From a virus (Duplodnaviria; Caudoviricetes): a stretch of DNA of 56,002 nucleotides. The stretch is from the IMG/VR virus record IMGVR_UViG_3300025128_000003, positions 1 through 56,002 of that record; one strand, written 5' to 3'. The notes under the pieces are model-generated. The model was not told the origin of the DNA. It made no database searches and saw only the letters and a program-made list of their open reading frames with translations. Shown here piece by piece: positions 11,380 to 56,002 of the stretch. The position numbers were made by a program, and so were the translations under genes. Within the stretch, counting starts at the first letter, position 1, and every line of letters starts with the position of its first letter.

Positions 11380-11802
11380 TTAGTTAGATAAATTAAATGT
11401 AGGGTCTAAATCCTTTGGGTTTTCTACCTTTAGCATAATTTGATCGTCATACAAAAGAATAAGCTTTACTCCTTTATAAATCATTTTTACACCAGCATGC
11501 TTACCATAACACACATAGTCACCCGGCTCACACCAAGCACCTGTAGAAAACTTTTCTTTATCTTCGTAGGCAAGCTCACCCACAGCCAAAACTTTACCTA
11601 CCGTAGTAAGATATGTCATATCATCTACTGTAGAGTCAGGCAAAAGAATACCACCCTTTGTTTTTGATTTAATAGATACTGGACGAATTAAAATATTAAA
11701 ACCGGGAATTGTAGGTAGAGGTGAGGGATCAGCTACATCATCTTCATTGCCGCTAATCCATTGATCATTTTTAATTGCTTTATTCAAAGCAGCTTGCTGC
11801 AT
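11380..11802 (-). CDS. groES: GroES-like co-chaperonin
   Basis: ILIRP...KTKGGILLPD...GKVLAVG...GDYV.YGK.AG...LLYDDQI Cpn10 pattern. Confidence 0.85.
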   Translation of the reverse strand: MQQAALNKAIKNDQWISGNEDDVADPSPLPTIPGFNILIRPVSIKSKTKGGILLPDSTVDDMTYLTTVGKVLAVGELAYEDKEKFSTGAWCEPGDYVCYGKHAGVKMIYKGVKLILLYDDQIMLKVENPKDLDPTFNLSN

Positions 11803-14934: not shown

Positions 14935-16500
14935 TTAAGTCCTCCAATATCCTACTCTTTTTTGACGCCGGGGGTTTACATCATCTTCCCAGTTTGGATC
15001 ATCTGGATGTCCTAGCCGCCATGACTCCTTCATGTAATGCACAGCCATAACAAGAGCATCTACTTGGTCATCATGACGCCCATGCGGAAATGTAATAAGT
15101 TCCTCCATTAATTCGTCTGCCCATCGCTTATTAGATGGTAGCCAAACTCGTCCAGACTCCAGCATAGGACTAGCTGCATACACTCTAGATACCTTGTCCT
15201 TATCTGGTGTGTACTCCATTACAGGCAAACCACTACGTCTTAAATCCTGTATCAGAGATTGACCACTTGCTTTCTTTTCAATAATACAAACATCAGGTCT
15301 GTACTCATTATATAGTTCCTGTGATATCCTTCTCAAATCAGGATATTCAAACTTACCTCTTGTACTTCCTAACAAAATAAGATTACTTCCCCAAAGCTCC
15401 CGCCCATCATAGTCTTCTTCAGGCATGTCAAATATTCCCCATGTCTGAATAACTGTGAAGTCAGCAGTTGTCTTTGTAGAAAAGGCTGTATCAAATGTTT
15501 GAATAATAAAGTCACAGGACGGCGGGTCATCATAATCCCACCGTTCAACCCACCTCTTTTTTATAATCCCACCTTCTTCTGGTGTAGGATTCTGCATATA
15601 TAATGATTCCCAATACCTTGAACCATTGCTTGCAATAATCTCTTCTTCATCTACTCGTAATACTTCGTCGGGTTTCCATTCAGGAAAATAAGAACTACCT
15701 ACAGGTAAATCAAGTAACTCTGAAGCTTCTTCGTCAATCCAAGCAGGTATCTTTACAACCTCCCAAGGATATGTACTTTCCATATCCATTACTTCTTCCT
15801 GCTTCAGTAACCATCCACATAAATCATCATGATGGTATCTTGTGTTAATAATCACTATAGAACCACCGGGCATAATACGAGTACGCAAACCAGCAGGATA
15901 CCATTCTTTAATATACCTACGACCAGCTTCTGAAAAGCTGTCCTCTTCCGACATAGCATCATCCAAGATTGCTATATGCGCTCCCCGTCCTGCAATCTGT
16001 GATCGAACACCAGCAGCATAGTATGTACCATTAAGATTTGTTTTCCATTTACCCGCCGCCCGTACATCACTCCGTAATGTAACACCGGGAAAAATATCTT
16101 GGAACTGTTCTGTGTTTACAATATCTCTTACAGACCTACCGAAGTCTGAGGCAAGTTGATCACTATGAGATATCGTCAGTATCTCATGTTGAGGATTATT
16201 ACCTATATACCATGCTGGAAATATCTTGGAACAAATGACTGACTTGCTACTACGAGGTGGTAAAAAGACCATTAACCTTTTGATCTCACCATCCTGAACC
16301 TTTTGAAGTTTGTCAGAGAGAATTTTAATATGTCTCCCCATCTTCCAATCAGACACAACTGTAGGGGCAACAAGACGAACAAAGGAAATAAAGTCCATCT
16401 TACTTGTTTGTAACACAAGATCATCTAGAAATGTACTTAGTGTCGCTAGTGTATCTATAGAGTTCTCTATAGATTCTTCCATACCTTCTTCTAAACTCAT
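14935..16500 (-). CDS. terL: Terminase large subunit
   Basis: PPRSSKS Walker A-like, AGRGAH.AILDD Walker B, TRYH.DDL, DTAFS, IEKKASG, FPHGRHDDQVDA nuclease motif. Confidence 0.93.
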   Translation of the reverse strand: MSLEEGMEESIENSIDTLATLSTFLDDLVLQTSKMDFISFVRLVAPTVVSDWKMGRHIKILSDKLQKVQDGEIKRLMVFLPPRSSKSVICSKIFPAWYIGNNPQHEILTISHSDQLASDFGRSVRDIVNTEQFQDIFPGVTLRSDVRAAGKWKTNLNGTYYAAGVRSQIAGRGAHIAILDDAMSEEDSFSEAGRRYIKEWYPAGLRTRIMPGGSIVIINTRYHHDDLCGWLLKQEEVMDMESTYPWEVVKIPAWIDEEASELLDLPVGSSYFPEWKPDEVLRVDEEEIIASNGSRYWESLYMQNPTPEEGGIIKKRWVERWDYDDPPSCDFIIQTFDTAFSTKTTADFTVIQTWGIFDMPEEDYDGRELWGSNLILLGSTRGKFEYPDLRRISQELYNEYRPDVCIIEKKASGQSLIQDLRRSGLPVMEYTPDKDKVSRVYAASPMLESGRVWLPSNKRWADELMEELITFPHGRHDDQVDALVMAVHYMKESWRLGHPDDPNWEDDVNPRRQKRVGYWRT

Positions 16501-40263: not shown

Positions 40264-43200
40264 TTATTCCTCTCTAATAGCAGTGCCATATAGCTGTTGG
40301 TAAACTCTATTTATATCTTCAATAGGTAGAGGCGCACCAGTAACAAACCTTACTCTACCTCCTAAAGTTTCACTGATACCATCTGGAATAAACATATTAG
40401 CATCAGCAGCATTAATAAGTCTTTCTGCACCAGATGGTAAGTCTCTACTAAATTGTTGTGTTAAACCTCTATTAAGTCCAGTCCTAAAATCTTCTTGCAG
40501 AATGTCTCCATAAGCATCTAGCGTAGACTGTAACTTTCTAAACTTTGAAAGCTTTTGTTGTTGTCCTTTTACATAAGCATCATATACTTGATCAGGAGTT
40601 TGAGCTTCATAAGAACTAAGGCTTTGATTTACATATCTACTAGAATTTTGAATGTCCTGTACAACAGGAAGAATATTCCTTCTCATACCTTGAGTAAGAT
40701 CAAGTCTAGATTTTCTTAATCCAAAAAATTCTTCAAGACCATCATATCCCGTAACACCTGCAGCACCAGATACTAGCCCACCAGTAGGTGTGGAGTATCC
40801 ATATTTAGAAACTTCAGTTCCAGTTGGATCAGATAAAAATGAGTTAAGTGTAATCCCTTCTTCACCTAATTCTTTAGCTTTAGCTTGTTGAAAAGCAAGT
40901 CTATTTCTTAAAAATTTAACAAAGCCCGGTTCAAATAATTCTGCTGATCCTATAGCTATATTTTTAAAAGTATCTCCTATTTCTGTAGGAGTTTCAAAAT
41001 CTTGACCTCCACCTAGAGCATCTAAAAATCCTTCTGTAATCATAGATGTTCCTAAAAATGGACCAAGCATTTGATCAGATAATTGCAATGTTAATTTAGC
41101 CGCATCATCTGTTGTAAACTCTTGACCATCAGAATATAGTTTATCTACAGCCCTATGCAATGTTCTGCCACCTATCTTTAAATATTCAAAAGGATCAAGA
41201 GGACCAAGATCAACATAGTCAACTACAGTATTACCTCCTGCTAGTTTAAATGGACTTAAAAATATTTTAGCTGAGTGGGCTGAGTAGCTAGGAACAAGAT
41301 CATTAATAGCATTCTTTTGATCATCTGATATACCAAAGAGGGATTGGCTATAGTCCGCTGCCATATCACCACCTATTCCAGCAACAGTTATGCCACCAAG
41401 TCTTTTCATTCCTTCAGCAACTAATCTAGGATTATTAGAGGCTAAATCTTGCATAGTATATTTTACTAGATTTTTAGTAACTCGCATCATCTCTGCAGGA
41501 AAAGCTAAGAAGTCACCAACAGGCGCACCTCTAAGTTTTTTAAATCCTCTAGGAACAAGATTATAGTTAGGCATTAAGTCTCTTGTTCTTTGTGCAGCAA
41601 GCCTATCTAATTCATCAGCACTAATATCAGGCAAAGCTTTCTTTAAATAATTTTTAGTTTTTTCAAAATGAATAACTTTAAAATAATCATCTTCTGCTTG
41701 GTATAATTTGAATAGTTTATCGCCACCAGTTCTGTTTAAAATCTTTTGACCTAAACCATTTGGCTGTAGTTTAAACGCATCACTAGCCACCTGTCTAATA
41801 ATATTAGCAGTAACACCACTATCTATAATTCCAAGTTCTTGATATTTAGCTACATTATCAGCTAACTCTTTTGAACTAACATTTTTAAATTTAGAACCTA
41901 CTGCATCTGCAGCTTCTTTAAAACCTTTACCACCAGAGACCATGCCATTCGCAGCCATAAGTACTGTGTTACCCATCATATTTCTAAAATGTGTAGCTGG
42001 ATTACCAACAGTCTTTGACAATTGTGAAATAGATTTACCTTTTAAAAATGTTCTAACTACACTATTAGGATTAGCTCCAAAGAATCCATCTTGATCAAGA
42101 GCATCTTTAACTATTTTTTGATAATTTTTATTTGCATATAATCCTTCTAATGGATTTTTAAATGCTCCACTATTTACACCTGAAACAATACGAGATAATC
42201 TTTCTTCACCAGCTTCACCTAATGATTTAAGTCCGGCCTCTGGTTCAGGAGAAACAACTCGCCTTCCTATTCCTTGCACACCTGCTCTTGCTAAATCATT
42301 AGCATCAAGATGCCTTCTAATACCATCAAGATATTCATACTCTGCTTTAAATACAGAAAGTTTTTCTAATGTATTTTGAAAGTTTTTAAATGGGTCTTTT
42401 ACTTCACCCCATAGTTCTCTAATTTCAGGAGGAATATCTTTACGTTTTCTTGTAGACTTACTTGTACTACCTGTGCTTTCTCTCATTTTATCTAAAAATT
42501 TAAACACACCTTCTGCTTCTGAGCCACCTCTACCAGCAACCAAATCTTTTAAAACAGCACCAATATTTTCTTCTGGAATGCCTTCAACATTTCTTAAATA
42601 AGCAGCAGCACTTTGTTTTATATTATCTGGTATATCTTCAAACTTATAATTAGGATCATCAAAAGCTCTATATGATCTATTTAAATATGTTCCTATATTT
42701 TTATCTATTTTAATTTGTAGTTCACTACCATCTTTTAAAAAATTATCTTTTATAAAAGCAGACAACTTATCAATTTCATTTCTCATTTCATCTACAGTAT
42801 TAGAAGCAAATGTAGAGTCTGCTCTTAATGTAGCCTTTGCAGTTTCGTCGCCAGCTAAAGCTTTATTGACTACATTTTCTAAATAGTCAGTATTATACAA
42901 ATTTTTGTCTTTTAATTCCTTTTCTAAAGGTTCATTAAATCCTCTTATCTTTGTAAATGTTGCGTTTGCAGCACCATCTTTTTTAACCGCAAGCTCAAGC
43001 ATAGTTTCATCTGTACCACCAGTTGCAGTTAAATATCTACTAAAAGGTACAATTTCATTTATTTTAGGACTAACACTTTTAGTAAGTGATTTTAAAATTT
43101 TAGCACCGCCAACAATTGTGCCTCCAAGAATACCCTCTAATGCTAAGTTATTAACAAGCTGATCAATAAATTGTTGTTCTTCTGGATCATCAAGATCAAT

Positions 43201-43824
43201 AGTACGACTTCTAATTTTATCTAAGTATTCTTTTGGTAAAAGTTCATTGTCAACAAGAATATTAGCTATGTTATCTTCTGGTCTTTCATAAGCTGAATAA
43301 GTAAGATTAGCTGTACCAGCACCTGCAACATTTCTACCAATTTTTCCTAGTCCTCCTAACTTGCCTAGTTTAGCAGCACCTGCATAGGGAATAAGATATG
43401 ATCCAATCTCCGCACCTATATTACGGATATCACCTGTTAAGCCCTCTCCATGATAAGGATCAAATGTTTCTTGAAAAGTTCTTTTAACTTCATTAGGTAT
43501 ATTTGCACCAATGTCATCAGCAAAGTTACCTATAGTACTAGATACTGACTCTGGCAAGATCATATCACCAAGCTCAACAACACCTGTAGCTGCTCTACCT
43601 AAAGCAGATGTAAACATGGCTACAGGTGCAGGACCAAATCCTTCTGTTGGATCAACTTCACCTTTTTCATACTTATCAAAAAATGAATCGTATTCTTTAT
43701 AATACTCATCAGGATTAACACCGTAAGATTCTATAATACCTTCAACTTGTTCAGGTGCTACATCATCTCCAGCAATTTTATTTTTAATATCATGAAAGGT
43801 TTGAGTTCTAAAACTTATGCCCAT
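40264..43824 (-). CDS. Large internal virion (ejection) protein
   Basis: 1186 aa, last gene of the internal-protein series; YL.RSY..F, P.TH.RN, G.F..FPAE..R motifs. Confidence 0.65.
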   Translation of the reverse strand: MGISFRTQTFHDIKNKIAGDDVAPEQVEGIIESYGVNPDEYYKEYDSFFDKYEKGEVDPTEGFGPAPVAMFTSALGRAATGVVELGDMILPESVSSTIGNFADDIGANIPNEVKRTFQETFDPYHGEGLTGDIRNIGAEIGSYLIPYAGAAKLGKLGGLGKIGRNVAGAGTANLTYSAYERPEDNIANILVDNELLPKEYLDKIRSRTIDLDDPEEQQFIDQLVNNLALEGILGGTIVGGAKILKSLTKSVSPKINEIVPFSRYLTATGGTDETMLELAVKKDGAANATFTKIRGFNEPLEKELKDKNLYNTDYLENVVNKALAGDETAKATLRADSTFASNTVDEMRNEIDKLSAFIKDNFLKDGSELQIKIDKNIGTYLNRSYRAFDDPNYKFEDIPDNIKQSAAAYLRNVEGIPEENIGAVLKDLVAGRGGSEAEGVFKFLDKMRESTGSTSKSTRKRKDIPPEIRELWGEVKDPFKNFQNTLEKLSVFKAEYEYLDGIRRHLDANDLARAGVQGIGRRVVSPEPEAGLKSLGEAGEERLSRIVSGVNSGAFKNPLEGLYANKNYQKIVKDALDQDGFFGANPNSVVRTFLKGKSISQLSKTVGNPATHFRNMMGNTVLMAANGMVSGGKGFKEAADAVGSKFKNVSSKELADNVAKYQELGIIDSGVTANIIRQVASDAFKLQPNGLGQKILNRTGGDKLFKLYQAEDDYFKVIHFEKTKNYLKKALPDISADELDRLAAQRTRDLMPNYNLVPRGFKKLRGAPVGDFLAFPAEMMRVTKNLVKYTMQDLASNNPRLVAEGMKRLGGITVAGIGGDMAADYSQSLFGISDDQKNAINDLVPSYSAHSAKIFLSPFKLAGGNTVVDYVDLGPLDPFEYLKIGGRTLHRAVDKLYSDGQEFTTDDAAKLTLQLSDQMLGPFLGTSMITEGFLDALGGGQDFETPTEIGDTFKNIAIGSAELFEPGFVKFLRNRLAFQQAKAKELGEEGITLNSFLSDPTGTEVSKYGYSTPTGGLVSGAAGVTGYDGLEEFFGLRKSRLDLTQGMRRNILPVVQDIQNSSRYVNQSLSSYEAQTPDQVYDAYVKGQQQKLSKFRKLQSTLDAYGDILQEDFRTGLNRGLTQQFSRDLPSGAERLINAADANMFIPDGISETLGGRVRFVTGAPLPIEDINRVYQQLYGTAIREE

Positions 43825-43830
43825 ATATAT

Positions 43831-46293
43831 TTATCCTTGTTCATCAGAAGCTTTTTGAGCTTTACCTATTTTAGCTCTAGCTGCGTCTATTGTTGCTTGA
43901 GTAGTTCCAGCTTCTTTGCCCCGTCTACTGCCTGTCCTTGCTAAAGATAAAGCAAAAGCATTTGCAGTATTAACAGCAGATGTTGGATTAACACCTTCAT
44001 TTAATAAAGTTGTAAATCTATTATATACCTGTAACTTTTGAAAAGGTTCAATTGTTAAGTCGTTTATACTTTTTACTAATTTATCATATGCTTCATTACC
44101 ATCTAAACCATACCTATTTGCTATTCGTTCAGCTTGGGCTTTTGCTGATCTTAAATTATTTTCAGATTCAAGTTTACTTCTTTCCATATCAAGTTTAGTT
44201 TTAGCTAAATTAATATTAAGCTTATCTTTTAAGATATCACCCTCAATATCTTTAGCTGCTCTGCTTTCTTTTCTAAAGTCACTTTGTATATTTTTTAGTT
44301 CTGCAATAGAAGGTAGTGTAGCCTGATTTAGCTTTGCAAGAACCCCACCGGGTCCAGCTTTACCAGCAAACCTAGCTGATGTTGCAGCAAATTCTGCAAA
44401 TAATCTTGCTTCTCTAGCCTCTTCTGCTTCAGATAATCTTTCAGCACCCTCTCCTTTTTTCTTTTCTAAGAAAGATAGATAGTCACTAAATGCTGTATCA
44501 AGCTCATCATAACTATCTGATAAAGGAGTTCCCTCTTTATTTACAAGATTATTTAATTGTTTTGGGTCTAAAACAGATTTCTCAACTTCAGCAGATTTAA
44601 TAGCTGCATTTGCAGCTTTTTCTATATTAGCTTCTTTTTTAATTACTTCAGATGATTCTTGCGGACCAAAAGCTGCATCATCTGCTAGTACATCGCTACC
44701 TACAACATCTCTGTTATCAATCATTTTAGGTAATTGTCTTGTATCTGCTATGCCACCCGGTAAAGGTGCAGCAATTTGAGTTAATGCTTCTTCACCTAAA
44801 GATTTTTTTCTACTTACTTCTCCACCCGCCAAAGGTGTTGAACCAAAAGGTGCAAATATATCTTGTTCTTGTTGAGTAAGATAATCAACTGTTCTAGAAG
44901 TTGGTATTTGACCTGATCCTAAACCTTCATCTACTTCTGTTATTGATGGAGGATCAACAGCTATACTTAATGGAACTGTTGGTGTAGCTTGAGCAGCTAT
45001 TAACTCTTCAAGAGAACCAACAGGTTTAGCTCTTGCTGCTAATGAAGAATCTGAACCTCTAACAGTTCTAGGTGTACCAATAAGACTAGAAATTTTTTCT
45101 AAAAAATTAGCACCTACATTACGAATACTACTATCTCTTTGTTCAGCTTCTAATGGAGTTGGTCCCGATGGTGCTGATATACCTACTGGTCTACCATACA
45201 TTCTCACATTTGGAATATTATATTGTCTAGTATTATTTTGATGTCTTTCTAAACTAGCCAAGCCACCTCTAATTTGTCCACCAGATTGACGAGGTACTAC
45301 CTGACCACCTGCTTTATTCTTAAAGCCACCCAAGGCACCAAAGATACCAACGCCTGTACCAAGTGTACCAAGAAGCTGTTGACCAAAGCTAGGTTGTGGT
45401 GTTTGTTGAGTTGTAACCTGATACGTTGACGGGGAGAATGGATATGCATTTACAAGAGCATTATACTCTTGTAATTGACGTAGTGGAAACTCTCTTTGTT
45501 CTATAAAGTCTCTCTCAGCTAAATTTAGTGCAGCTTGTTCTTGGGCTTGTTGAGCTTCACCAACACTAGAAAGCAATGCAAGTTCTCTTGCAGCTTGTGC
45601 AGGAACAGCTTCACCAAGACTTGAAAATAATCCAGCACCCGTTAATTGTCTTTGCTTTTCAGCTTCAAAAGATCGTTGAGCTTGTTCAAAAGCTGTAGCT
45701 AAACCTTTACTTTCAATATCATCAAGCTGACGTTGCAAGTTTCTTTGTGCTTCAGCCTCAAGAATAGCTGCTCTTGACCCGCCAAATGATCCAGCACCTA
45801 CAGCCTCTGCTCTTAGTTTAGGTTCAATAACACTTTCAAACTGTCTAACAGTTTCTCTTTTAGCTTCATCAATAACTGGCCGATATACATCTTGTGTAAA
45901 TCTTTCAAAATCTTCACCAGTAAAACCTAATGATCCAAGCCCAGCTTTTTCTTTAGCCTGTTGAAAGAACTGGGGTGATCTACCTAAGTCAGTTGAAGCA
46001 AGTCCCTGTCTTCCTAACGCTGCAAGACCAGTAAAAGCTTCTTGCTGTTCAGGAGCAAAGTCAGCAATTCTTGGACCAGTAAACTGATCGAAAGCTCTAA
46101 GCTGTTGAACAGTATCACCTGTATCTGGGTCTGTTGCATCTTCAAAGAACTGCGCCCTACCCGCTTCTAATACATCTTGAATAAAAGGTTTAGTTATATT
46201 AAACCCTTCATTTGTTAATGCTCGGGCTGAAACAGCAGTAGGACCACCGCCAAACTGTCCTGACCCACCAAAAACATTTGCTAATACACCCAT
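43831..46293 (-). CDS. Internal virion (ejection) protein
   Basis: GAGSFGGSR.A..EAE motif, Q-rich helices, Gly-rich TM-like segment. Confidence 0.7.
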   Translation of the reverse strand: MGVLANVFGGSGQFGGGPTAVSARALTNEGFNITKPFIQDVLEAGRAQFFEDATDPDTGDTVQQLRAFDQFTGPRIADFAPEQQEAFTGLAALGRQGLASTDLGRSPQFFQQAKEKAGLGSLGFTGEDFERFTQDVYRPVIDEAKRETVRQFESVIEPKLRAEAVGAGSFGGSRAAILEAEAQRNLQRQLDDIESKGLATAFEQAQRSFEAEKQRQLTGAGLFSSLGEAVPAQAARELALLSSVGEAQQAQEQAALNLAERDFIEQREFPLRQLQEYNALVNAYPFSPSTYQVTTQQTPQPSFGQQLLGTLGTGVGIFGALGGFKNKAGGQVVPRQSGGQIRGGLASLERHQNNTRQYNIPNVRMYGRPVGISAPSGPTPLEAEQRDSSIRNVGANFLEKISSLIGTPRTVRGSDSSLAARAKPVGSLEELIAAQATPTVPLSIAVDPPSITEVDEGLGSGQIPTSRTVDYLTQQEQDIFAPFGSTPLAGGEVSRKKSLGEEALTQIAAPLPGGIADTRQLPKMIDNRDVVGSDVLADDAAFGPQESSEVIKKEANIEKAANAAIKSAEVEKSVLDPKQLNNLVNKEGTPLSDSYDELDTAFSDYLSFLEKKKGEGAERLSEAEEAREARLFAEFAATSARFAGKAGPGGVLAKLNQATLPSIAELKNIQSDFRKESRAAKDIEGDILKDKLNINLAKTKLDMERSKLESENNLRSAKAQAERIANRYGLDGNEAYDKLVKSINDLTIEPFQKLQVYNRFTTLLNEGVNPTSAVNTANAFALSLARTGSRRGKEAGTTQATIDAARAKIGKAQKASDEQG

Positions 46294-46306: not shown

Positions 46307-48022
46307 TTAACTCATTAATGATTGAAGAGCTTTACCACCATCCATCTCTGGAGGTTGCATATCTCTACCATATTTTTCTTTTCTAAATTCACTGATAAAT
46401 TCATCCATCTCATCTGCACCATCATCAGGATTACCATTCCCAATCATAGCCATAACATCAGCAGGTACAACATATTCTTTAGGAGACACTGCTAGAAGAC
46501 CACCACCTTTAATTTCCATTATCTGATTATCTTCCATGCCATGTCCATCACCAGCTACAATACCTTCAAAGTCTGGGCTACCACCAGCAGCTAAACCAAC
46601 AAGCCCTCCCTGTGCAGCAGGAACAAATTGAGTGGGACCAAAGAACTCAAAGCCTCCACCTTCAATAGCCCTACGTCTAGCTTCTGCTGCTGTAAGACCA
46701 GCACCAGTACCACCAAATTCGCCAACTCTTCTACGAGCAGAGACCCTTCTACGAGCTATAGGTGCAGGAATACCCTGACTAATAAGTTGTTGTGCAGCTT
46801 CTTCCTCTGCCATGCGTTGAGCTTCAATAGCATCTACAAGGCTAGTAGCTTCAACAGAGGCTAACCCTCTACCTAAATCTCCAAATATAGCACCAGTATC
46901 TAATTCTCCATAAAGGTCTCTATATCCGTCTGGAATTGCTTTAAAACCTGCTTGTAAACCATCTTTACTAGCTGCTGCTTTAGCAGGAGCAAATCTATCA
47001 ATATATGCTGCTTCTCCTGTACCTGCATAAGCTTCCTCTGGAACAAAAAAATCAGCAGTTAGTTGTCTTTCTGCAGCTAATCTTGGAATTTGTTCAGCAT
47101 TTAGTCCAGCCATACCCAGCCTGCTTTCTATTGGACCTAAATTTTTAGTATCTTTAAACTGTTCTTGTGCTTTATTATATACTTCTAAAGAAGTAAGAGG
47201 TCTACTTGTTTTTGTTAGTATCCTGCTAGGTAAATTAAAAACATTACTTGGACTTGAAATAGCTGCTAATTCAGCAGTTGTTCGGTTATTAAGTGCATCA
47301 GGTATACCCGGTAAAGAACCAGTTTTTTCTCCTAAAATATCTTTATACAACGGATCATCAAGAGGTATAAGTTCGTCATAATCAGTAATATCAATATCTG
47401 GAACTCTGTAACCTTCAGAATCAATCAAGTTAGTGGCGGCTTTATCACCTCCAAAAAGATATGGTCTCTTAGCTCTAGCTTTTGATAATTCTCTAGCTCT
47501 AAGATATTGTCTTTCCCTTGACTCTTTTATATAGTCATCACTATCTTTAATTCCTAAACGCTGATCATTTGGTCCTAAAAATTCAGCTAATTTACCAGTA
47601 CCGTATTGCAAACCACCAGACACAATACCAGAAGATAATGAATCACTTAAACTTCTAAATGGTAAAGAGCCTAATGCTGTACCTGCACCAGATAAAATAG
47701 ACTTAGTAGCTAGAGGACTAAGACCTAACTGTGAGAAAGCAGGACCAGCAATAGCAGGTAAAGCAATAGAAGCTATAGCAGGAATAATATTTTCTGGTTT
47801 AAAGTAATTTTTAACAGCAGATTTAACAGTATCAAATACATCACCTAAGAAATACTCAGGCAATCCAGTATCAGGATTAATAGACATTAGACCAGATTCT
47901 TGAAGTCTTCTAACTTCTGGTCTTGTCATGTGTACAAGTTCTGTATCTCCTCCTCTACCTTGTAGAGCAAGAAGAGAAGCTACACCACTCTGTGGTGCTT
48001 GTCTATTAATAAATACTGCCAT
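46307..48022 (-). CDS. Internal virion protein
   Basis: GRGGDT.LVH, INPDTGLPEY, G.G.GM.D.....S..EYVVPADV motifs. Confidence 0.7.
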   Translation of the reverse strand: MAVFINRQAPQSGVASLLALQGRGGDTELVHMTRPEVRRLQESGLMSINPDTGLPEYFLGDVFDTVKSAVKNYFKPENIIPAIASIALPAIAGPAFSQLGLSPLATKSILSGAGTALGSLPFRSLSDSLSSGIVSGGLQYGTGKLAEFLGPNDQRLGIKDSDDYIKESRERQYLRARELSKARAKRPYLFGGDKAATNLIDSEGYRVPDIDITDYDELIPLDDPLYKDILGEKTGSLPGIPDALNNRTTAELAAISSPSNVFNLPSRILTKTSRPLTSLEVYNKAQEQFKDTKNLGPIESRLGMAGLNAEQIPRLAAERQLTADFFVPEEAYAGTGEAAYIDRFAPAKAAASKDGLQAGFKAIPDGYRDLYGELDTGAIFGDLGRGLASVEATSLVDAIEAQRMAEEEAAQQLISQGIPAPIARRRVSARRRVGEFGGTGAGLTAAEARRRAIEGGGFEFFGPTQFVPAAQGGLVGLAAGGSPDFEGIVAGDGHGMEDNQIMEIKGGGLLAVSPKEYVVPADVMAMIGNGNPDDGADEMDEFISEFRKEKYGRDMQPPEMDGGKALQSLMS

Positions 48023-49319
48023 AGTTCCTTACCTGCTGTGGTTGTGCATAAAATGATGCTGGTTGCATAGCATTAGTATAATAGTTTGTTGATCTTAACC
48101 CATCGGGTTGTTGTTGACCTTTTATAAACTGTTCAGGTCTTTGAGATGGGATTGTTTCTTCTGGTATTGACATACCTTTATTTACTACATCAATAAGAGT
48201 AGGTTGTTTATCAATTAAATCTTGTATACCCCCACCTGTTTGTGCAATAGTTCTACCGGGAGTAAAAACAAATGGTCTTCTTCTTATTCTTCTTAAATCA
48301 CTTGTATTATTATTAGATGGTAAAACCTCTTGTTGAGGTCTAACTTCTAATGGGTTTCGTAAAACACTAGCAATACCTCTAGGTCTTTTTGGGTCTGGCT
48401 CGGCATCAGTATTAAAATTAAAGTCATCAACCGGATCAGAAGCAGGAACTGTAGGGGTTGTATCTACTGTCTGTGGAGATGATGCTGAAATAGGAGATTG
48501 AGCAGGTGCTGGACCTATATCAACACCCATTGTACTTAAAGACTTATTAGCTACAGATCGAACTTCACTTATAAAATCTTGTGTATTTAATCCTAAATTA
48601 TTTGCAATATCAGCTAATCCTCCTTTGAGAGAATCTATACCTAAATCTATTGCCTGTGCAGTAGGTGTGAAAGCTGTTGCAACATCTGTTAAACCAATAT
48701 TTCCTGCTAAAGATGCTACTTCACTTAGAGGATTTTGTGTATTTAATCCTAAATCATTTGCAATACCTGTAACGTCTGCAATAGTTCTACCTGCAAATCC
48801 AGCAAAAGGATTTACAACATCAATTATATCTGCTATAAATTCTCCCGGTTTAAATCCCCTAAAACCAAACTGATCAAATTCAAATCCTAAAAATTCAAAT
48901 GGGTCCATTATTTCACCTATAGTGGTATCGAAACCACCAAAAGGGTCTTGTCCATATTGACCAATTTCACCCGGATCAAGTCCTGATAGATCATCACCAA
49001 AAGGATCATCTGTAGTTGGTCCTAAACCACCCTCTACTCCACTCTGAGCATCTGTAGCTGGATCAGATATCCCAGTATCATCTGATTGACTTGTGCTATT
49101 TGGAACCTCACCTAAAGGACCACTTGGTCCAGAAGGACTATAAACAGAAGGAGGAACAGATGGATCATCATCTGAACTATCACCACCTCCACTATCACCA
49201 CCTTCACCAAAACAAATAAACTTTTGCAAAGGTTTTTCTATCTCATTCCAAGGTTTATCTAATCCTAAAATAGTAGATAAACTATCAGACCATATTCTAT
49301 TTTGTTTTAATTCAATCAT
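48006..49319 (-). CDS. Putative internal virion protein (acidic, G/D/S/P-rich)
   Basis: Likely start MIELKQN at 49319 (ATGA overlap with the desaturase stop); CFGEGGDSGGG motif; internal duplicate IANxLGLNTQ...SEV. Confidence 0.6.
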   Translation of the reverse strand: MIELKQNRIWSDSLSTILGLDKPWNEIEKPLQKFICFGEGGDSGGGDSSDDDPSVPPSVYSPSGPSGPLGEVPNSTSQSDDTGISDPATDAQSGVEGGLGPTTDDPFGDDLSGLDPGEIGQYGQDPFGGFDTTIGEIMDPFEFLGFEFDQFGFRGFKPGEFIADIIDVVNPFAGFAGRTIADVTGIANDLGLNTQNPLSEVASLAGNIGLTDVATAFTPTAQAIDLGIDSLKGGLADIANNLGLNTQDFISEVRSVANKSLSTMGVDIGPAPAQSPISASSPQTVDTTPTVPASDPVDDFNFNTDAEPDPKRPRGIASVLRNPLEVRPQQEVLPSNNNTSDLRRIRRRPFVFTPGRTIAQTGGGIQDLIDKQPTLIDVVNKGMSIPEETIPSQRPEQFIKGQQQPDGLRSTNYYTNAMQPASFYAQPQQVRNYGSIY

Positions 49320-50071
49320 TGTTTTACCCAACTAATAAAATTACCCGCTAAATCTAGTTCCCACCATTTAACTTTATTAGTATACTTATGAGGATAACAG
49401 TGATGGTTATTATGCCATCCCTCTCCAAAATTTAAATAAGCCAACCACCAAATATTATTAGATACATTATTACCTATAAAATTTGCATAGCCTAAACTTT
49501 TATGACAGAAGTAATTTGTAAAAGCTTGAAGTATCATAGTTATCATTGAAGGTATAATAAACATAAAATATAAAGCTTGAATACTTATAAAACTTAATCC
49601 TGCAATATAAGTTAAGATACAAAGTAACCAATATTTATGAGTAAATTTCATAAATTTATTTTTACCAATATCTGTACATTTTCTTAAAAGATCATTAGAA
49701 GATATTTTATATCTTAAAAATAACATATCAAATAAATTTAAATATTTTGGTGAGTGAGGATCATTAATACCATCTGCTTTATCATGATGATTTCTATGAA
49801 TACCAACCCAGCCAATAGTGCTACCTGTCCCAGAAATAACACTAAATATTCCACATAAATATTTTATCCAAGAATATTTAAACTCAAAAGATTTATGAGT
49901 CCAATACCTATGATTACCTACAATAATACCAAGACCATTCATGCAGGAATACATCAAGATAGCTGCTAAAACCCATAGCCAACTAAAATTAATAAATGGA
50001 ATAAAAGCTATAGAAGTTAATATATTTATAGCTAATAATATTCTTATTGATGTAAATCTGCTTGTTAGCAT
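49316..50071 (-). CDS. Membrane fatty-acid desaturase (delta-9/DesC-like)
   Basis: Three His boxes HRYWTH, HRNHH, GEGWHNNHH; DPHSP; WWELD; TM segments. Confidence 0.92.
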   Translation of the reverse strand: MLTSRFTSIRILLAINILTSIAFIPFINFSWLWVLAAILMYSCMNGLGIIVGNHRYWTHKSFEFKYSWIKYLCGIFSVISGTGSTIGWVGIHRNHHDKADGINDPHSPKYLNLFDMLFLRYKISSNDLLRKCTDIGKNKFMKFTHKYWLLCILTYIAGLSFISIQALYFMFIIPSMITMILQAFTNYFCHKSLGYANFIGNNVSNNIWWLAYLNFGEGWHNNHHCYPHKYTNKVKWWELDLAGNFISWVKQ

Positions 50072-50463
50072 TTTGAAGGATTCTCCACTACATATCTGTG
50101 ATTATTTTTTCTAAAAGTTCTCATATACTTTCTATTAACATGACCAAATTGTTTTAAATTTTCTTTTTTAATTTTTCTAATAGCTTCTGGACCTCCTAAA
50201 CAAACAAAATGCATATACCAAAATATATCTCCACATCTCCATTCATTTGGCTGTAATCTTCTATTTGATTCTACAAAAGCTTTTTCAACTTCTTTATTAA
50301 TAAATGCATATGTTAAAAATCCTGAATCAAAAATTTTATATTGTCCTAGTTTAACTGGAGGAATAATAAATCTTTCTAAGTGCTGCAGTGTATAATGTTT
50401 ATGATTTTCAGATTGTAATAAGTATTGACATATAGTTACAAAATCTTTATTCTTATCTTTCAT
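50065..50463 (-). CDS. RTX-toxin-activating lysine acyltransferase-like protein (HlyC family)
   Basis: S..H (SENH), IPP...GQY, TYAF, L...EW.CGD..W pattern matching HlyC/CyaC. Confidence 0.75.
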   Translation of the reverse strand: MKDKNKDFVTICQYLLQSENHKHYTLQHLERFIIPPVKLGQYKIFDSGFLTYAFINKEVEKAFVESNRRLQPNEWRCGDIFWYMHFVCLGGPEAIRKIKKENLKQFGHVNRKYMRTFRKNNHRYVVENPSKC

Positions 50464-50747
50464 TAATTTAAATCATGCCAAGAAGTTTCTGAGCCTAAAC
50501 TAACGTAGCCAACAAACTTCCCCCGAGGTGCTACATAAACAATATTACCTGCTTGTGGCCTTCCTATTTCTGTTACAGTAACTACTGTAAGAATATTTGT
50601 AGAAGGTTTAGTTTCTTCTTGTATGTCCCTTGTTTGTAAGTCTGATATTAATTTTGCTCCCCATTCTGACATAGTATCATAGAGATTGTCAACCTCTGAA
50701 TCTACAAAGCGAACGAACTTAGGTAACTCTGGATATCGTACTGGCAT
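50463..50747 (-). CDS. Small tail-associated protein
   Basis: Coupled after the tail gene; G.I.Y......F.GY......W..L. Confidence 0.6.
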   Translation of the reverse strand: MPVRYPELPKFVRFVDSEVDNLYDTMSEWGAKLISDLQTRDIQEETKPSTNILTVVTVTEIGRPQAGNIVYVAPRGKFVGYVSLGSETSWHDLN

Positions 50748-52603
50748 TACCTAAGTCCGTCCTCTTGTAAAGAAAGTCTTAAAGAGCCATATCTCCATTC
50801 GGTCCCGCCAGTACCATCACAAGAAACTCGAACGATAGCTTGCCTTCCTCTTGCCCTTAAATCAACCTTCTTTGTCTCTGATGTTATTGTAAATGGTCCT
50901 TTTGTAATTGCATCATTTACAGGAAAGTTTTGTGCGATAATACTAAATTGAAGATTACCATTGTTTAATGTAAAGTCAGGAATAAGTCTATCCATAAACA
51001 TTATTTCATTTCCATCTTCAATATCAAATGCTGCTGATTCAATAAATGAATTTTGAGCTTCTCCATTAGCTGTAAAGATACCTTCTGGTTCATTATCAAT
51101 AAGAAAAGATGAAACATCTGTAGTTATAGTATTTCCAAAAACATCTTTATCTTCAAAGGTAGTATATGTAGTTGTACCAAAAGACCATGTTTTTTCTAGT
51201 GGGTTATATAAAACATATTTATCTGGTTCATTAGAACTAGCAGAACAATATAACCATATAATTTCTTTAAACTCAGAGTTAATACCTGCAAAGACTTTAT
51301 CTTCTGCATTACGATTAAAATCATCAAATATAAATCTACGAACTGTACAATCTAAATTTCTAACTTGACCATCAAATGCATAGAAGTTATCCTTGCCCAT
51401 CCAAATTGAAACACCATCAAAGTCAACAGCAGCATGTGGTCCTATTAAACCACAGTTGGTTCCACCCGGTTGAAACCTAAAAGTAAAGGGTGGACCAGTA
51501 AATGTCATTAACCATATAGCATTATCAGTCCAAATATTAACTGCATTTCTTGATCTAACTGCCCCTACAACTTCTGTACCATCAGTAAGAATATTTTCAC
51601 CTGCCGTACTATCTTGATCAGTAGGTGTCCAGTTATCATAGTTATTTTGATCTGACCATCTAACTAACATAGGATTAAAATTACCAGTTCCAAATTCTGT
51701 AGAACCAAAAGAAATAAGGTGTCTATCATTAGGTGATATTAAAATAGAATTATTAACAGAAGGTGAAGCACTAATAAATGTGGCTCTATCAGGATTAGAC
51801 TCAATTGTAGTATCCCACTTATATATTCGTCCACCCCTTCGACAAGCTATAAGGTCTTCCCCAAATGTATCTAAACTCCACTGTGTATTTCTAGTAATAA
51901 TATTAGATGCTGATGATGGTTGATTCCATGCTCTAACACCTGTTGTAGAAGTTCCAGCATTATAAATACCTGCACCATAACCTAAGTTAGTAATAGCGGT
52001 TATAGTGCCTGTAGGTAAAAGATATTTTAATGTGGCAGTTCCTACATCATTTTGAGTAGATTGGGCAGCAGTAGTAGTTTCAAAATGAAACCTATGTGCA
52101 TTAATAACAGACACAGCAAATGTTTTACCGCTTAAATCTTGATTACCTCCAATAGATGTTGAAGATGTAAAGGTTACAAAATCTCCTGTTTCAGCACCAT
52201 GAGATGATACAGAAACAATAATAGTAGTTTGCGATGCAACAGTGTAGAAACCTCTATTCGTACCAGCAATTGTAACAACTGCGGAAACATTAGTTCCTAC
52301 ACTAACTTCTTTAACTGGTGTAATATCTATATTATTACTATTATTATATGCAAATAATTTTTTTTCAGTACCAAAAGCAGCAAATTTAAAAGAATCATTA
52401 TCAGCCCATGCTATTAAATCTCGTCCAATTCCATCAAAAGCAGTATCAACTCTTTTAACGTAACCTCTTAGATTTTCAGGGCGACCTTGCCTAAACCGTA
52501 CTTTATCAACATTATACCAAGAACCCTCTTCTGCATATTCAGTAGATTCTCGGTTTATGCCCGGTTTAAAATTTAATTTTACAAGTCTTGAATTAGTTGA
52601 CAT
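50747..52603 (-). CDS. Tail tubular/nozzle protein (P22 gp10 / T7 gp12-like)
   Basis: F.PGI.RE.T.Y, VRFR.G.PE, WSLD.FGEDL, RWSDQ, N..F.EI.W.Y, R.RGRQ, DG.R end. Confidence 0.8.
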   Translation of the reverse strand: MSTNSRLVKLNFKPGINRESTEYAEEGSWYNVDKVRFRQGRPENLRGYVKRVDTAFDGIGRDLIAWADNDSFKFAAFGTEKKLFAYNNSNNIDITPVKEVSVGTNVSAVVTIAGTNRGFYTVASQTTIIVSVSSHGAETGDFVTFTSSTSIGGNQDLSGKTFAVSVINAHRFHFETTTAAQSTQNDVGTATLKYLLPTGTITAITNLGYGAGIYNAGTSTTGVRAWNQPSSASNIITRNTQWSLDTFGEDLIACRRGGRIYKWDTTIESNPDRATFISASPSVNNSILISPNDRHLISFGSTEFGTGNFNPMLVRWSDQNNYDNWTPTDQDSTAGENILTDGTEVVGAVRSRNAVNIWTDNAIWLMTFTGPPFTFRFQPGGTNCGLIGPHAAVDFDGVSIWMGKDNFYAFDGQVRNLDCTVRRFIFDDFNRNAEDKVFAGINSEFKEIIWLYCSASSNEPDKYVLYNPLEKTWSFGTTTYTTFEDKDVFGNTITTDVSSFLIDNEPEGIFTANGEAQNSFIESAAFDIEDGNEIMFMDRLIPDFTLNNGNLQFSIIAQNFPVNDAITKGPFTITSETKKVDLRARGRQAIVRVSCDGTGGTEWRYGSLRLSLQEDGLR

Positions 52604-54680: not shown

Positions 54681-55883
54681 TTACCTACCATATATAGGTG
54701 GTAGTATTCCATTGCCACCTATATCTGCCATAGCCATATATAAAATAGTATTACCGTCACCATTAGGTGCGCTATCGCCACTCAGTGGGCGAAAGCCTTC
54801 AGCTAACAAATCAATATCATAATCACTTCCACTCGCTGGTCCTCTTGCAGCTTCTGCATCTTCGTCATTTGGAAAAAGAAACAGTTCAGCAGGGTTTGAT
54901 GGTGATCTTGCTGTATCAGTTATTACCCAGTCTCTAGCAACTGGAGCATTTTTAAAAATAACAAATCTTGGACGAAATCCCAAGTGAACATACGGAGGAA
55001 CAGTAGAACTACCATTGCCTATATAACTTCCTACTTTACATACACCCGGCACTGATCTAAAGGCGTACATTATAAACGGTTCTCCACTGGCATTTACTTC
55101 AGTACTTAGTCCTAATGTAATAATACTACTGGTTGGTGCTGTATCATTCCAAAGGGTAGTATCATCGTCCCAAACCGCAGCAGATTCTAATCTGCCAAAA
55201 TCTGTTTGTGGGTCACTGGCAGAATATTCATGGTAGGTTATCCATCCTCGTTCCGCATGACTGCTTTCTTTTGTGAAGAAAAATTCTGGCGCTCCACTCA
55301 TGCCATGTTTTATACTAGCTCCAGCATTTCCATCACCTGTATAACTAATAATTGAAAATGCATCACTTGCACTAATACGACCACTTGAATCAATAGTGCC
55401 TATGCTAGTTGAACTTGCATCGTTAGTCCATGCAGTACTTGCTTGCCAACACCATGCTACAAAGTTTTCAGTGTTATCGTTATATCCGTTGGCTCCACTA
55501 CCCAGAGAAAATGATCCAGTGCCAAAAGCAGTAAGGCCATTAGTGTCTGTGCTTTCTGCCGCAGTTGAGTCACTTGACAATTCCTTTGTAGCCCCTCGTA
55601 CAACGTCTACCAGCTTATGCTCATCATCTTGAGAACGATTTTTAAGCCACACCCAAGCTGGATCAATATCAGTTGAAATTGATCTTACAGAGCCGTTACC
55701 CGTATATGTTACAGGTTGAAAATAATCTACGCCTTGATTTTCTGGTCCTGTTAGGTTTGCAGAACAAGGTGCTAAAAACGTAGCTGGTACAGCATATTTA
55801 AAAAGCCCATGTCCATTTTCATCAACGTTTGTTCCAGCAGTTTCATTCCCAGAGAAAGTTGGATTATCACCAAAATTTATAAC
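54681..55883 (-). CDS. 3' part of the LamG/SPRY tail protein that begins at 1395
   Basis: NFG, YTGNG, PAWVWLKNRS, VAWCW, SIISYTG, GSYIGNG, GFRP.FV repeats; in frame with 1..1395. Confidence 0.85.
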   Translation of the reverse strand, partial: VINFGDNPTFSGNETAGTNVDENGHGLFKYAVPATFLAPCSANLTGPENQGVDYFQPVTYTGNGSVRSISTDIDPAWVWLKNRSQDDEHKLVDVVRGATKELSSDSTAAESTDTNGLTAFGTGSFSLGSGANGYNDNTENFVAWCWQASTAWTNDASSTSIGTIDSSGRISASDAFSIISYTGDGNAGASIKHGMSGAPEFFFTKESSHAERGWITYHEYSASDPQTDFGRLESAAVWDDDTTLWNDTAPTSSIITLGLSTEVNASGEPFIMYAFRSVPGVCKVGSYIGNGSSTVPPYVHLGFRPRFVIFKNAPVARDWVITDTARSPSNPAELFLFPNDEDAEAARGPASGSDYDIDLLAEGFRPLSGDSAPNGDGNTILYMAMADIGGNGILPPIYGR

Positions 55884-56002
55884 TCCAATATCACCCGACC
55901 TTTGCAAACCTATTACAAAGATATAATCTTGAACTGTTAGTTGGTCATCATGGTTATCAATATTTAGTGTAGTACTAGCTGTTGCAGAACCATTTCTCCA
56001 TG
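55884..56002. repeat. Terminal overlap copy of 1-119
   Basis: Exact match. Confidence 0.97.

Follow-up and report, generated by a model that had tools for sequence, protein, structure and literature searches.

Known toxin-activating acyltransferases (TAATs) are encoded by genes that adjoin those of their substrates (PMC8510554). Members of the family are not confined to RTX toxins: in the same source, CdiC is described as lipidating the receptor-binding domain of its genetic neighbor CdiA, which serves in cell recognition and is not an RTX protein. Here we describe a HlyC-like gene of this family in the virus record IMGVR_UViG_3300025128_000003 (the window, the whole stretch of 56,002 bp that was analyzed), a complete record with terminal repeats that represents a marine podovirus genome. 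Comparison of this gene across four phage groups leads us to propose, with about even confidence, that it encodes one half of a TAAT enzyme–substrate pair, in which the enzyme would acylate an N-terminal tag of the adjacent late protein. The HlyC-like gene, a desaturase gene and the gene that follows them would form a module in the late (virion) operon, with the following components:

50065-50463, minus strand: 132-aa acyltransferase of the HlyC/TAAT family, assigned by PF02794 and predicted fold.
49316-50071, minus strand: 251-aa membrane fatty-acid desaturase, short and delta-9/acyl-CoA-desaturase-like, assigned by PF00487 and His boxes.
48006-49319 (to 49331 from a TTG start), minus strand: 437-aa late protein from ATG (441 aa from TTG), the proposed substrate; its ATG overlaps the desaturase stop (ATGA).
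49206-49319, minus strand: N-terminal tag of the 437-aa protein, residues 1-38 (MIELKQNRIW...LQKFICFG), with K33-F-I-C36 invariant in 11 of 11 aligned N-termini.

The likeness to CdiC–CdiA lies in a small TAAT gene that stands beside the gene of a large non-RTX protein engaging another cell's envelope, in a substrate region that is largely unstructured and in the role proposed for the lipid, namely membrane or lipopolysaccharide (LPS) anchoring. The window module differs in being phage-encoded within a virion operon and in the desaturase gene interposed; what its enzyme is proposed to modify is a tag at the N-terminus, where an invariant Cys stands next to the Lys, and the dyad of this enzyme is His/His, whereas that of CdiC is His/Asp. 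With HlyC, ApxC and CyaC the window enzyme shares PF02794, the fold, the G-D-x-x-W block and the position of the catalytic His. Unlike those systems, the window genome lacks RTX repeat proteins and type I secretion genes, and the catalytic Asp is replaced by His. The enzyme is also shorter than the ApxC chains (132 aa versus 168-183) and only distantly related to them.

The 132-aa protein is a member of the TAAT/HlyC family. It matched PF02794 (HlyC) with an E-value of 1.8e-17 and 63.8 bits (cut-off 25) over profile positions 8-124 of 127, and a genome-wide search recovered the same family at 63.2 bits. An AlphaFold2 model, built on a 109-sequence alignment, had a predicted local distance difference test score (pLDDT) of 90.2. 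A preliminary description of this DNA, made from the letters alone, had named structure prediction against ApxC as a check of the fold. In a Foldseek search of the PDB, the three best matches of the model were indeed ApxC chains (4WHN; E 3.1e-8 to 1.4e-7, TMq 0.77-0.79), and the next were ordinary GNATs at E >= 0.057. The alignment with ApxC also bore out the reading of the active site given there: His21 of the SENH motif falls on the catalytic His, and His85 (YMHF) falls on the Asp of 'IDW'. Among 156 aligned family sequences, the catalytic-His column (ApxC His24, CdiC His37) holds His in 129, and the catalytic-Asp column (ApxC Asp93, CdiC Asp107) holds D in 124, E in 17 and H in 10. The resulting dyads are H/D in 103 sequences, Y/D in 18, H/E in 14 and H/H in 8, the rest being scattered; in the window clade (n = 11) they are H/H in four, Y/D in six and H/D in one. 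When 1.84 billion representative sequences were searched, 794 matched at E <= 0.001 and 46 at <= 1e-10, and only the protein's own cluster remained at <= 1e-30. NCBIfam contained no match for the HlyC-like protein, and a scan of viral contigs with a 52%-identical allele gave 67 pattern matches, none of which was confirmed.

The window clade comprises 13 loci besides duplicates, obtained from IMG/VR and metagenome scans (compared loci carry L numbers below). The HlyC-like gene is followed by an overlapping desaturase gene in 12 of the 13; the other locus, L098, is a contig of 1,065 bp in which the HlyC-like open reading frame (ORF) is truncated to 97 aa and the last 380 bp contain no desaturase. 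In each of the 12 loci that extend beyond the desaturase, the start of the following gene overlaps the desaturase stop (ATGA), and the product of this gene begins MIELKQNKIW.D.L....PW.....L.KFIC[FW]G. Eleven aligned N-termini of the clade are invariant at M1, E3, W10, D12, L14, W24, L31, K33, F34, I35 and C36, and a Gly/Asp-rich linker follows the tag. The trio of genes is found on two backbones. In type A (the window, L008, L091, L092 and L094), it stands directly after the genes for a tail-nozzle-like protein and a 94-aa protein. In type B (L007, L089, L090, L096 and L097), two more genes precede the trio, and the tagged protein has a different body, whose C-terminus resembles the 571-aa protein encoded next in the window. 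Alleles have been shuffled within the trio: the HlyC-like proteins of L091 and L094 are 52-53% identical to that of the window and their desaturases 96-98%, and L007 and L090 have HlyC-like proteins 91% and desaturases 75% identical on backbones that are only 35-64% identical.

An ESM Atlas model predicted the 437-aa protein to be mostly disordered (pLDDT 0.40; look-up scores <0.8, structure TM <= 0.22), and searches of Pfam, PHROG and NCBIfam found no match for it. It contains exactly one Cys, that of the tag, and the next three proteins of the operon (571, 820 and 1186 aa) contain none. The TTG start ('MGKT...') was rejected, being absent from L007, L008, L089, L090, L093 and L095-L097, where translation can begin no earlier than at the ATG that forms the ATGA overlap. 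Two other readings of the tag, as intein- or hedgehog-like and as a lipobox, were likewise dropped: inspection of the sequence, set against known motifs, found no signal peptide and no folded domain of Hint size after the tag, only the Gly/Asp linker.

The same pairing recurs in two other podovirus groups. L116-L118 are related phages (TerL 73% and portal 65-67% identical to those of the window) in which the trio lies between terminase and portal. It consists of a HlyC-like protein (145-151 aa, 32-33% identical), a desaturase (38%) and a 496-581-aa protein that begins MIKKFDLSD.HNLARLENK[YF]WCFMGDGDG and continues into a Gly/Asp/Ser linker. A scan with the enzyme type of L116-L118 found a further group, L179-L183, with the order terminase, portal (phrog_12082), HlyC-like protein (133 aa), tagged protein, a 361-aa protein and the major head protein, and without a desaturase. 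The tagged protein of this group has 288-289 aa (119 aa where contig L180 ends) and starts M.SKYLKFDGD.F.FEQRLFCFVGDGGED. The tagged proteins of L116-L118 and L179-L183 carry the same tag as that of the window clade, of the form [KR]-hydrophobic-hydrophobic-C-F-x-G-[DE]-G (hereafter C-F tag). The gene after the HlyC-like gene (after the desaturase where there is one) was tagged in 12 of 12 loci of the window clade, three of three of L116-L118 and five of five of L179-L183, and the three tagged proteins are otherwise unrelated. Across all loci, the core [KR][FYWLIVM]2C[FW] occurs within the first 45 residues of 24 of 2,119 ATG-started ORFs of at least 100 aa, 23 of them (three being duplicate contig copies) following a HlyC-like gene and one being background, and it occurs 29 times anywhere in 556,883 residues; since the motif was generalized after the groups had been seen, these counts are descriptive and carry no formal P value.

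A fourth group belongs to siphoviruses. Among 50,697 phage records, HlyC-like genes were found in only three cultured phages, all of them Pelagibacter phages, whose gene is named in a figure legend of a preprint (bioRxiv 10.1101/2019.12.14.876532). In HTVC026P and HTVC112P, the gene lies between a tail/tail-assembly protein (phrog_2048/778) and the central tail fibre J, which was identified by phrog_31 (E 3.8e-80 and 5.9e-55, respectively); in HTVC115P it precedes a 417-aa protein, and HTVC115P gp45 starts MGAISRVFKGATRAVKK. An IMG/VR scan matched 246 contigs of the siphovirus class, of which 80 were kept. A large ORF starts 0-19 nt before or at the HlyC-like stop in 79 of them, and the 80th contig ends there; in 69, a 188-aa ORF lies upstream of the HlyC-like gene, and none of the 80 loci contains a desaturase. 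All 47 distinct downstream N-termini read MG..., typically MGGxVKK, and most then continue into a hydrophobic stretch (NPFVALGVFAVGWLF) ahead of the J-like body. We take MGGxVKK to be similar to eukaryotic myristoyl-plus-basic signals. The dyads of the siphovirus enzymes (n = 80) are Y/D in 74, Y/E in five and Y/H in one. In a tree of HlyC-like proteins that took every eighth siphovirus sequence (10 of 80), the enzymes preceding C-F tags formed one clade (19 tips, support 0.977) and those preceding MG..KK tags the other. It was also observed that the J homologues carry a Lys-rich N-terminal extension of ~55 aa right after the HlyC-like gene (L009-L088; L001:12393-14552; L003:12360-15668; L002:12432-13685).

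The preliminary description had called for a survey of gene order. In four phage groups, HlyC-like genes always stand directly upstream of a late protein with a conserved N-terminal peptide specific to the group. The constant partner of the enzymes is this peptide, and not the genome position, the protein body or the desaturase. Because TAAT genes lie beside those of their substrates, CdiC acts on a non-RTX protein and the constant partner is the N-terminal peptide of the next gene's product, an enzyme–substrate pair is the most economical explanation. The 132-aa enzyme would then fatty-acylate the tag of the adjacent 437-aa protein, the candidate acceptors being the invariant Lys33 and the invariant Cys36 of K-F-I-C-F-G, of which Cys36 is the one nucleophile invariant across all three C-F-tag groups. 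By analogy with CdiC and the receptor-binding domain of CdiA, acylation would give the 437-aa protein an affinity for membranes in its role at the cell envelope, a role that it would most plausibly play when the genome is ejected. The desaturase, a predicted four-transmembrane-helix di-iron enzyme made at the same time, may shape the attached acyl chain or, alternatively, may independently adjust host membrane lipids late in infection.

The idea put forward in the preliminary description, that of a phage enzyme directed at a late or virion protein of the phage itself, therefore gains strong comparative support, four groups having a tagged late gene directly downstream, but the specific target and the operon position given there did not hold. 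The place inside the tail/ejection operon is true of the window and is not invariant: the genes lie between terminase and portal in L116-L118, and between portal and capsid genes in another group. The target named was AKLGKLGGLGKIG, a Gly-Lys segment of the 1186-aa protein. This segment is kept in just two of five loci, the window and its close relative L091, with no Lys counterpart in the HlyC-bearing L090, L097 and L008, and the N-terminal tag of the very next gene appears to be the better candidate. We consider it very unlikely that the enzyme acylates something else, whether a protein of the host envelope, a different phage protein (the 1186-aa protein, for instance) or a lipid with an amine group that the desaturase would modify as well. 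Such a target would be compatible with the facts that TAAT substrates are not predictable from sequence, that the enzyme and desaturase genes are translationally coupled and that the acylated lysines of HlyA lie in Gly-Lys motifs (PMC8510554), like that of the 1186-aa protein. Against it stand the adjacency of known TAAT genes to their substrate genes, the poor conservation of the Gly-Lys segment and the finding that no other feature co-varies with the enzyme as the downstream tag does.

Several observations weigh against the proposed enzyme–substrate pair. Acylation is argued from comparison, and the dyads are atypical. TAAT catalysis uses a His/Asp dyad, and D107A abolished CdiC function, although ApxC and CdiC retain residual activity when the His is changed to Ala (PMC8510554). 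The window enzyme has His85 at the Asp position, and the catalytic His is replaced in relatives, by Tyr in six of 11 window-clade and all 80 siphovirus enzymes and by Phe in L116-L118. These variants weaken confidence in catalysis, which in the window enzyme would have to proceed with His21/His85. They also bear on a different reading, which we rate as quite unlikely: the HlyC-like protein may be a non-catalytic, acyltransferase-derived assembly factor or chaperone that binds the tag and aids loading into the particle, as T7 gp13 is needed for a complete infectious virion. Consistent with this, the His/Asp dyad is incomplete in most phage members (H/H, Y/D, Y/E or F/D; H/D in only six of 102 tabulated), and T7 gp13, a protein with a predicted GNAT fold and no known enzymatic role, is encoded between nozzle and ejection genes. 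However, position 85 is D, E or H, each a potential general base, in all 102 tabulated phage sequences; the most conserved block of the family (G78, W82) is intact in the window enzyme; and the L179-type enzymes and L093 carry the full His/Asp dyad. Furthermore, the sequence link between gp13 and HlyC spans only 11 columns, with a probability of 12.9%, and PF11090, the family of gp13, was not among the Pfam matches of the window protein at E <= 0.1. A complex prediction with the HlyC-like alignment and the first 60 residues of the 437-aa protein, run without controls, scored 0.02 against a mark of 0.32 and speaks neither for nor against binding.

Among the points that count against the pair on the substrate side, besides the descriptive nature of the tag counts, hhalign of two tagged families aligned only 17 tag columns, at a probability of 6%. 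TAATs are lysine acyltransferases, and the residue before the tag Cys is Lys in the window clade and L116-L118 but Arg in L179-L183; we know of no precedent for Cys as acceptor in the family. The groups amount to no more than three or four lineages, within which features are shared through common descent. Finally, the 437-aa protein had no tblastn match at E <= 0.01 in the 50,697 phage records, and thus no homologue in cultured phages, and its presence in the virion is presumed.

The 251-aa protein matched PF00487 (FA_desaturase) with an E-value of 1.5e-16 and 61.3 bits (cut-off 29.7). Its His boxes HX4H, HX2HH and HX2HH are intact (H54-H59, HRYWTH; H92/H95/H96, HRNHH; H220/H223/H224, HNNHH) and, together with a DPH motif and the further H106 and H190, are invariant in 10 of 10 aligned homologues. 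A Kyte-Doolittle hydropathy estimate placed hydrophobic regions at ~6-52 and 147-185, each long enough for two helices. Homologues bear the source names 'stearoyl-CoA desaturase (delta-9)' or 'acyl-CoA desaturase', and the DesA equivalog of NCBIfam (NF049918) was matched with 69.4 bits, below its cut-off of 400.

Coupling of the desaturase to the acyltransferase is the least supported step of our proposal. The desaturase occupies the same slot in two groups whose enzymes are ~35% identical, which argues for some coupling. On the other side, a HlyC-like gene within 6 kb is missing from 73 of the 78 viral desaturase loci examined (from 372 IMG/VR contigs matched), among them two records rated 97-100% complete; the five that have one are two of the window clade and the three L116-L118. 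Conversely, no desaturase accompanies the HlyC-like genes of the siphoviruses or of the sister L179 group. The acyl-acyl carrier protein (acyl-ACP) used by TAATs is not what membrane desaturases act on; their substrates are acyl-CoA or lipids. The desaturase tree was midpoint-rooted and without support values, so one gain plus one loss of the gene and two gains fit it alike.

These data bring in another explanation, which we think unlikely: both enzymes may be cargo, that is, auxiliary metabolic genes (AMGs) acting on host lipids or membranes from a permissive site in the late operon, with the N-terminus of the next gene hitch-hiking in recombination. Desaturases like that of the window are common in phages, as the above counts illustrate, and several lie inside structural operons without a HlyC-like gene. 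In the cultured relative HTVC027P, a Pelagibacter phage, a glycosyltransferase and small ORFs fill the equivalent interval after the nozzle gene, and the allele shuffling described above shows that the region recombines. Desaturases of cyanophages, which like that of the window are His-box membrane enzymes of marine phages, have been interpreted as AMGs for host membrane lipids (PMC5776448), the default reading. In contrast to these, the window desaturase gene is translationally coupled between those of an acyltransferase and a tagged late protein, in an order kept in two groups whose desaturases are only 38% identical. Hitch-hiking would also leave unexplained why the same C-F tag follows HlyC-like genes that are 29-34% identical, at three genome positions and on otherwise unrelated proteins. 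Nor would it account for the 79 of 80 siphovirus loci in which the HlyC-like gene abuts the J-like gene at identities down to 39%. The composition of the pair gives no sign of a recent foreign insert either. The pair is AT-rich, as had been noticed from the sequence (GC 0.261 versus 0.370 for the genome; only 0.2% of 1150-bp windows are lower), yet its GC content at third codon positions (GC3; 0.12 and 0.16) equals that of the late genes on either side (0.11-0.14). The AT dip thus reflects amino-acid composition rather than foreign codon usage, and recent import as its cause was dropped. As a separate observation, desaturases 39-43% identical to that of the window lie in late or structural operons without a HlyC-like gene in L106 (6001-6780), L108 (6001-6759), L105 (3503-4414) and L115 (5842-6753); the gene after the desaturase in L105, L106 and L115 begins MANGL[FL]S or MAGLLS, maybe another recurring N-terminus.

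In the window, the module is part of a single long minus-strand late operon that runs from terminase (14935-16500) through portal (12108-14666), across the record ends and on into 56002-39532. The gene order in this last part is 301 aa > 618-aa nozzle > 94 > 132 > 251 > 437/441 > 571 > 820 > 1186 aa > M15 endolysin, and the neighbors of the module are as follows:

50747-52603, minus strand: 618-aa virion protein resembling the tail nozzle or 'stabilization protein', upstream of the module (phrog_3287, E 9.9e-82).
50463-50747, minus strand: 94-aa small protein whose stop overlaps the HlyC-like start (TAATG); homologues also follow the nozzle gene.
46307-48022, minus strand: 571-aa late protein, probably an internal or ejection protein (residues 14-75 compared with DSL-LC04).
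43831-46293, minus strand: 820-aa virion protein resembling DNA ejection proteins (phrog_4287 'DNA ejection protein', E 7e-22).
40264-43824, minus strand: 1186-aa virion structural protein that holds AKLGKLGGLGKIG at residues 151-163 (phrog_22602, E 2.6e-32).

All ORFs were found on the minus strand where the preliminary description had placed them, and the junctions around the enzyme pair read exactly TAATG, ATGCTAA and ATGA, the overlaps it had reported. Its absence of RTX toxin and type I secretion genes was also upheld: PF00353 gave 0 matches in the full 56,002-bp record, with matches in two of 14 named genomes in a control search, and no such family was found in the neighbors scanned. Its count of four internal virion proteins was borne out only in part: the 820-aa and 1186-aa proteins were matched by PHROG families, whereas the 441-aa and 571-aa proteins match nothing in PHROG or Pfam (nor, for the latter, in NCBIfam). 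Residues 14-75 of the 571-aa protein are 43% identical to part of a DSL-LC04 coding sequence annotated as 'tail tape measure protein'. The 618-aa protein found 152 phage records by tblastn, the best being the 'stabilization protein' of DSL-LC04 (35%), with the Pelagibacter phages HTVC027P/023P at 31%. Pfam and PHROG searches gave no match for the 94-aa protein; its homologues follow the nozzle gene in L007, L008, L089-L092 and L097 at 32-95% identity. At the nucleotide level, megablast of 48006-52603 against the 50,697 phage records gave no match.

Some further features of the genome were observed. From the 301-aa through the 1186-aa gene, GC3 is 0.11-0.22, compared with 0.25-0.30 in terminase, portal and endolysin. 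The record ends split one large minus-strand gene: a 465-aa ORF runs off the left end (1-1395) and a 439-aa ORF is open at the right (54681-56002), and both resemble parts of a fibre/virion protein (phrog_19943/24898; at least 1,047 aa) that has a homologue in L007. Because the ends cut a single gene, the terminal repeat would seem to be an overlap from circular assembly and not the physical end of a genome. Just after the portal gene, a 140-aa protein (11380-11802, minus strand) is 70% identical to an ORF of L116 that matches phrog_3188 'co-chaperonin GroES', which suggests that the phage has a GroES-like protein. In cultured relatives that lack the HlyC-like/desaturase pair, other modifying enzymes are encoded near the nozzle gene, namely a glycosyltransferase and 2OG-Fe(II) oxygenases (HTVC027P, L006, 12465-13412 and 7780-8373; DSL-LC04, L005, 1896-2516); genes that modify proteins or the envelope seem to gather in this part of the late operon.

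A side finding concerns T7 gp13. When the HlyC-like model was compared with viral structures, proteins of ~120-150 aa from T7-like phages were among its weak matches. T7 gene 13 (L185:3001-3414; also L184:3308-3724) lies between nozzle gene 12 and ejection genes 14-16, and its product, 'internal virion protein A', belongs to PF11090, called 'probable scaffold protein' in Pfam. A gp13 model, based on an alignment of 13 IMG/VR homologues, had a pLDDT of 93.5 and GNAT topology. Foldseek returned 56 PDB matches at E <= 0.001; with VIA-align, the best match had Z 12.1 (root mean square deviation 2.5 over 127 residues) and 135 chains had Z >= 8. The PDB matches listed were all GNAT-type acyltransferases; ApxC was not among the best 50 listed, which is no evidence that the folds differ. 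gp13 resembles the window enzyme in size (~135 aa), in its place between nozzle and ejection-protein genes and in its predicted acyltransferase (GNAT) superfamily fold. It differs in having no significant sequence relation to HlyC-like proteins, in matching ordinary GNAT acetyltransferases best and in carrying Thr at the Asp position of the shared block, where comparison with the HlyC profile set N.GD..WF against nSGd.lW.ID. Our literature search found nothing on a GNAT fold of gp13. Podoviruses may thus more widely encode a protein of acyltransferase fold immediately before their ejection genes, whether enzymatic or degenerate.

The strongest new fact here is that a phage TAAT enzyme is repeatedly found paired with a tag at the N-terminus of the next gene's product. 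Our literature search, whose coverage excluded most subscription journals, found no function assigned to phage HlyC-like genes and no fatty-acylated virion protein of a tailed phage. As a tentative extension, to which we give somewhat less than even credence, tailed phages may have protein-lipidation systems of their own. TAATs of virion operons would attach fatty acids to short N-terminal tags of the adjacent particle proteins, a C-F tag on disordered internal proteins of podoviruses and a myristoylation-like MGGxVKK tag on siphovirus J, and the lipid would serve insertion of the tail tip or of ejected proteins into the host envelope, with tailoring of the lipid by a dedicated desaturase in some lineages and the GNAT-fold gp13 of T7-like phages as a relative or analogue in this ancient slot.

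Little is understood of the way in which the tail-tip and ejection proteins of phages get into and through the Gram-negative envelope. If true, a phage TAAT–substrate pair would be a new post-translational modification in virion biology and would extend the TAAT family beyond toxins and contact-dependent inhibition (CDI) effectors. It would give a testable function to the 'toxin-activating acyltransferase' genes of abundant pelagic phages (246 IMG/VR contigs in the siphovirus class), and their short tags could serve as portable lipidation signals. It would also reframe a phage desaturase otherwise filed as a routine AMG and offer a pointer to the long-unexplained gp13 of T7.

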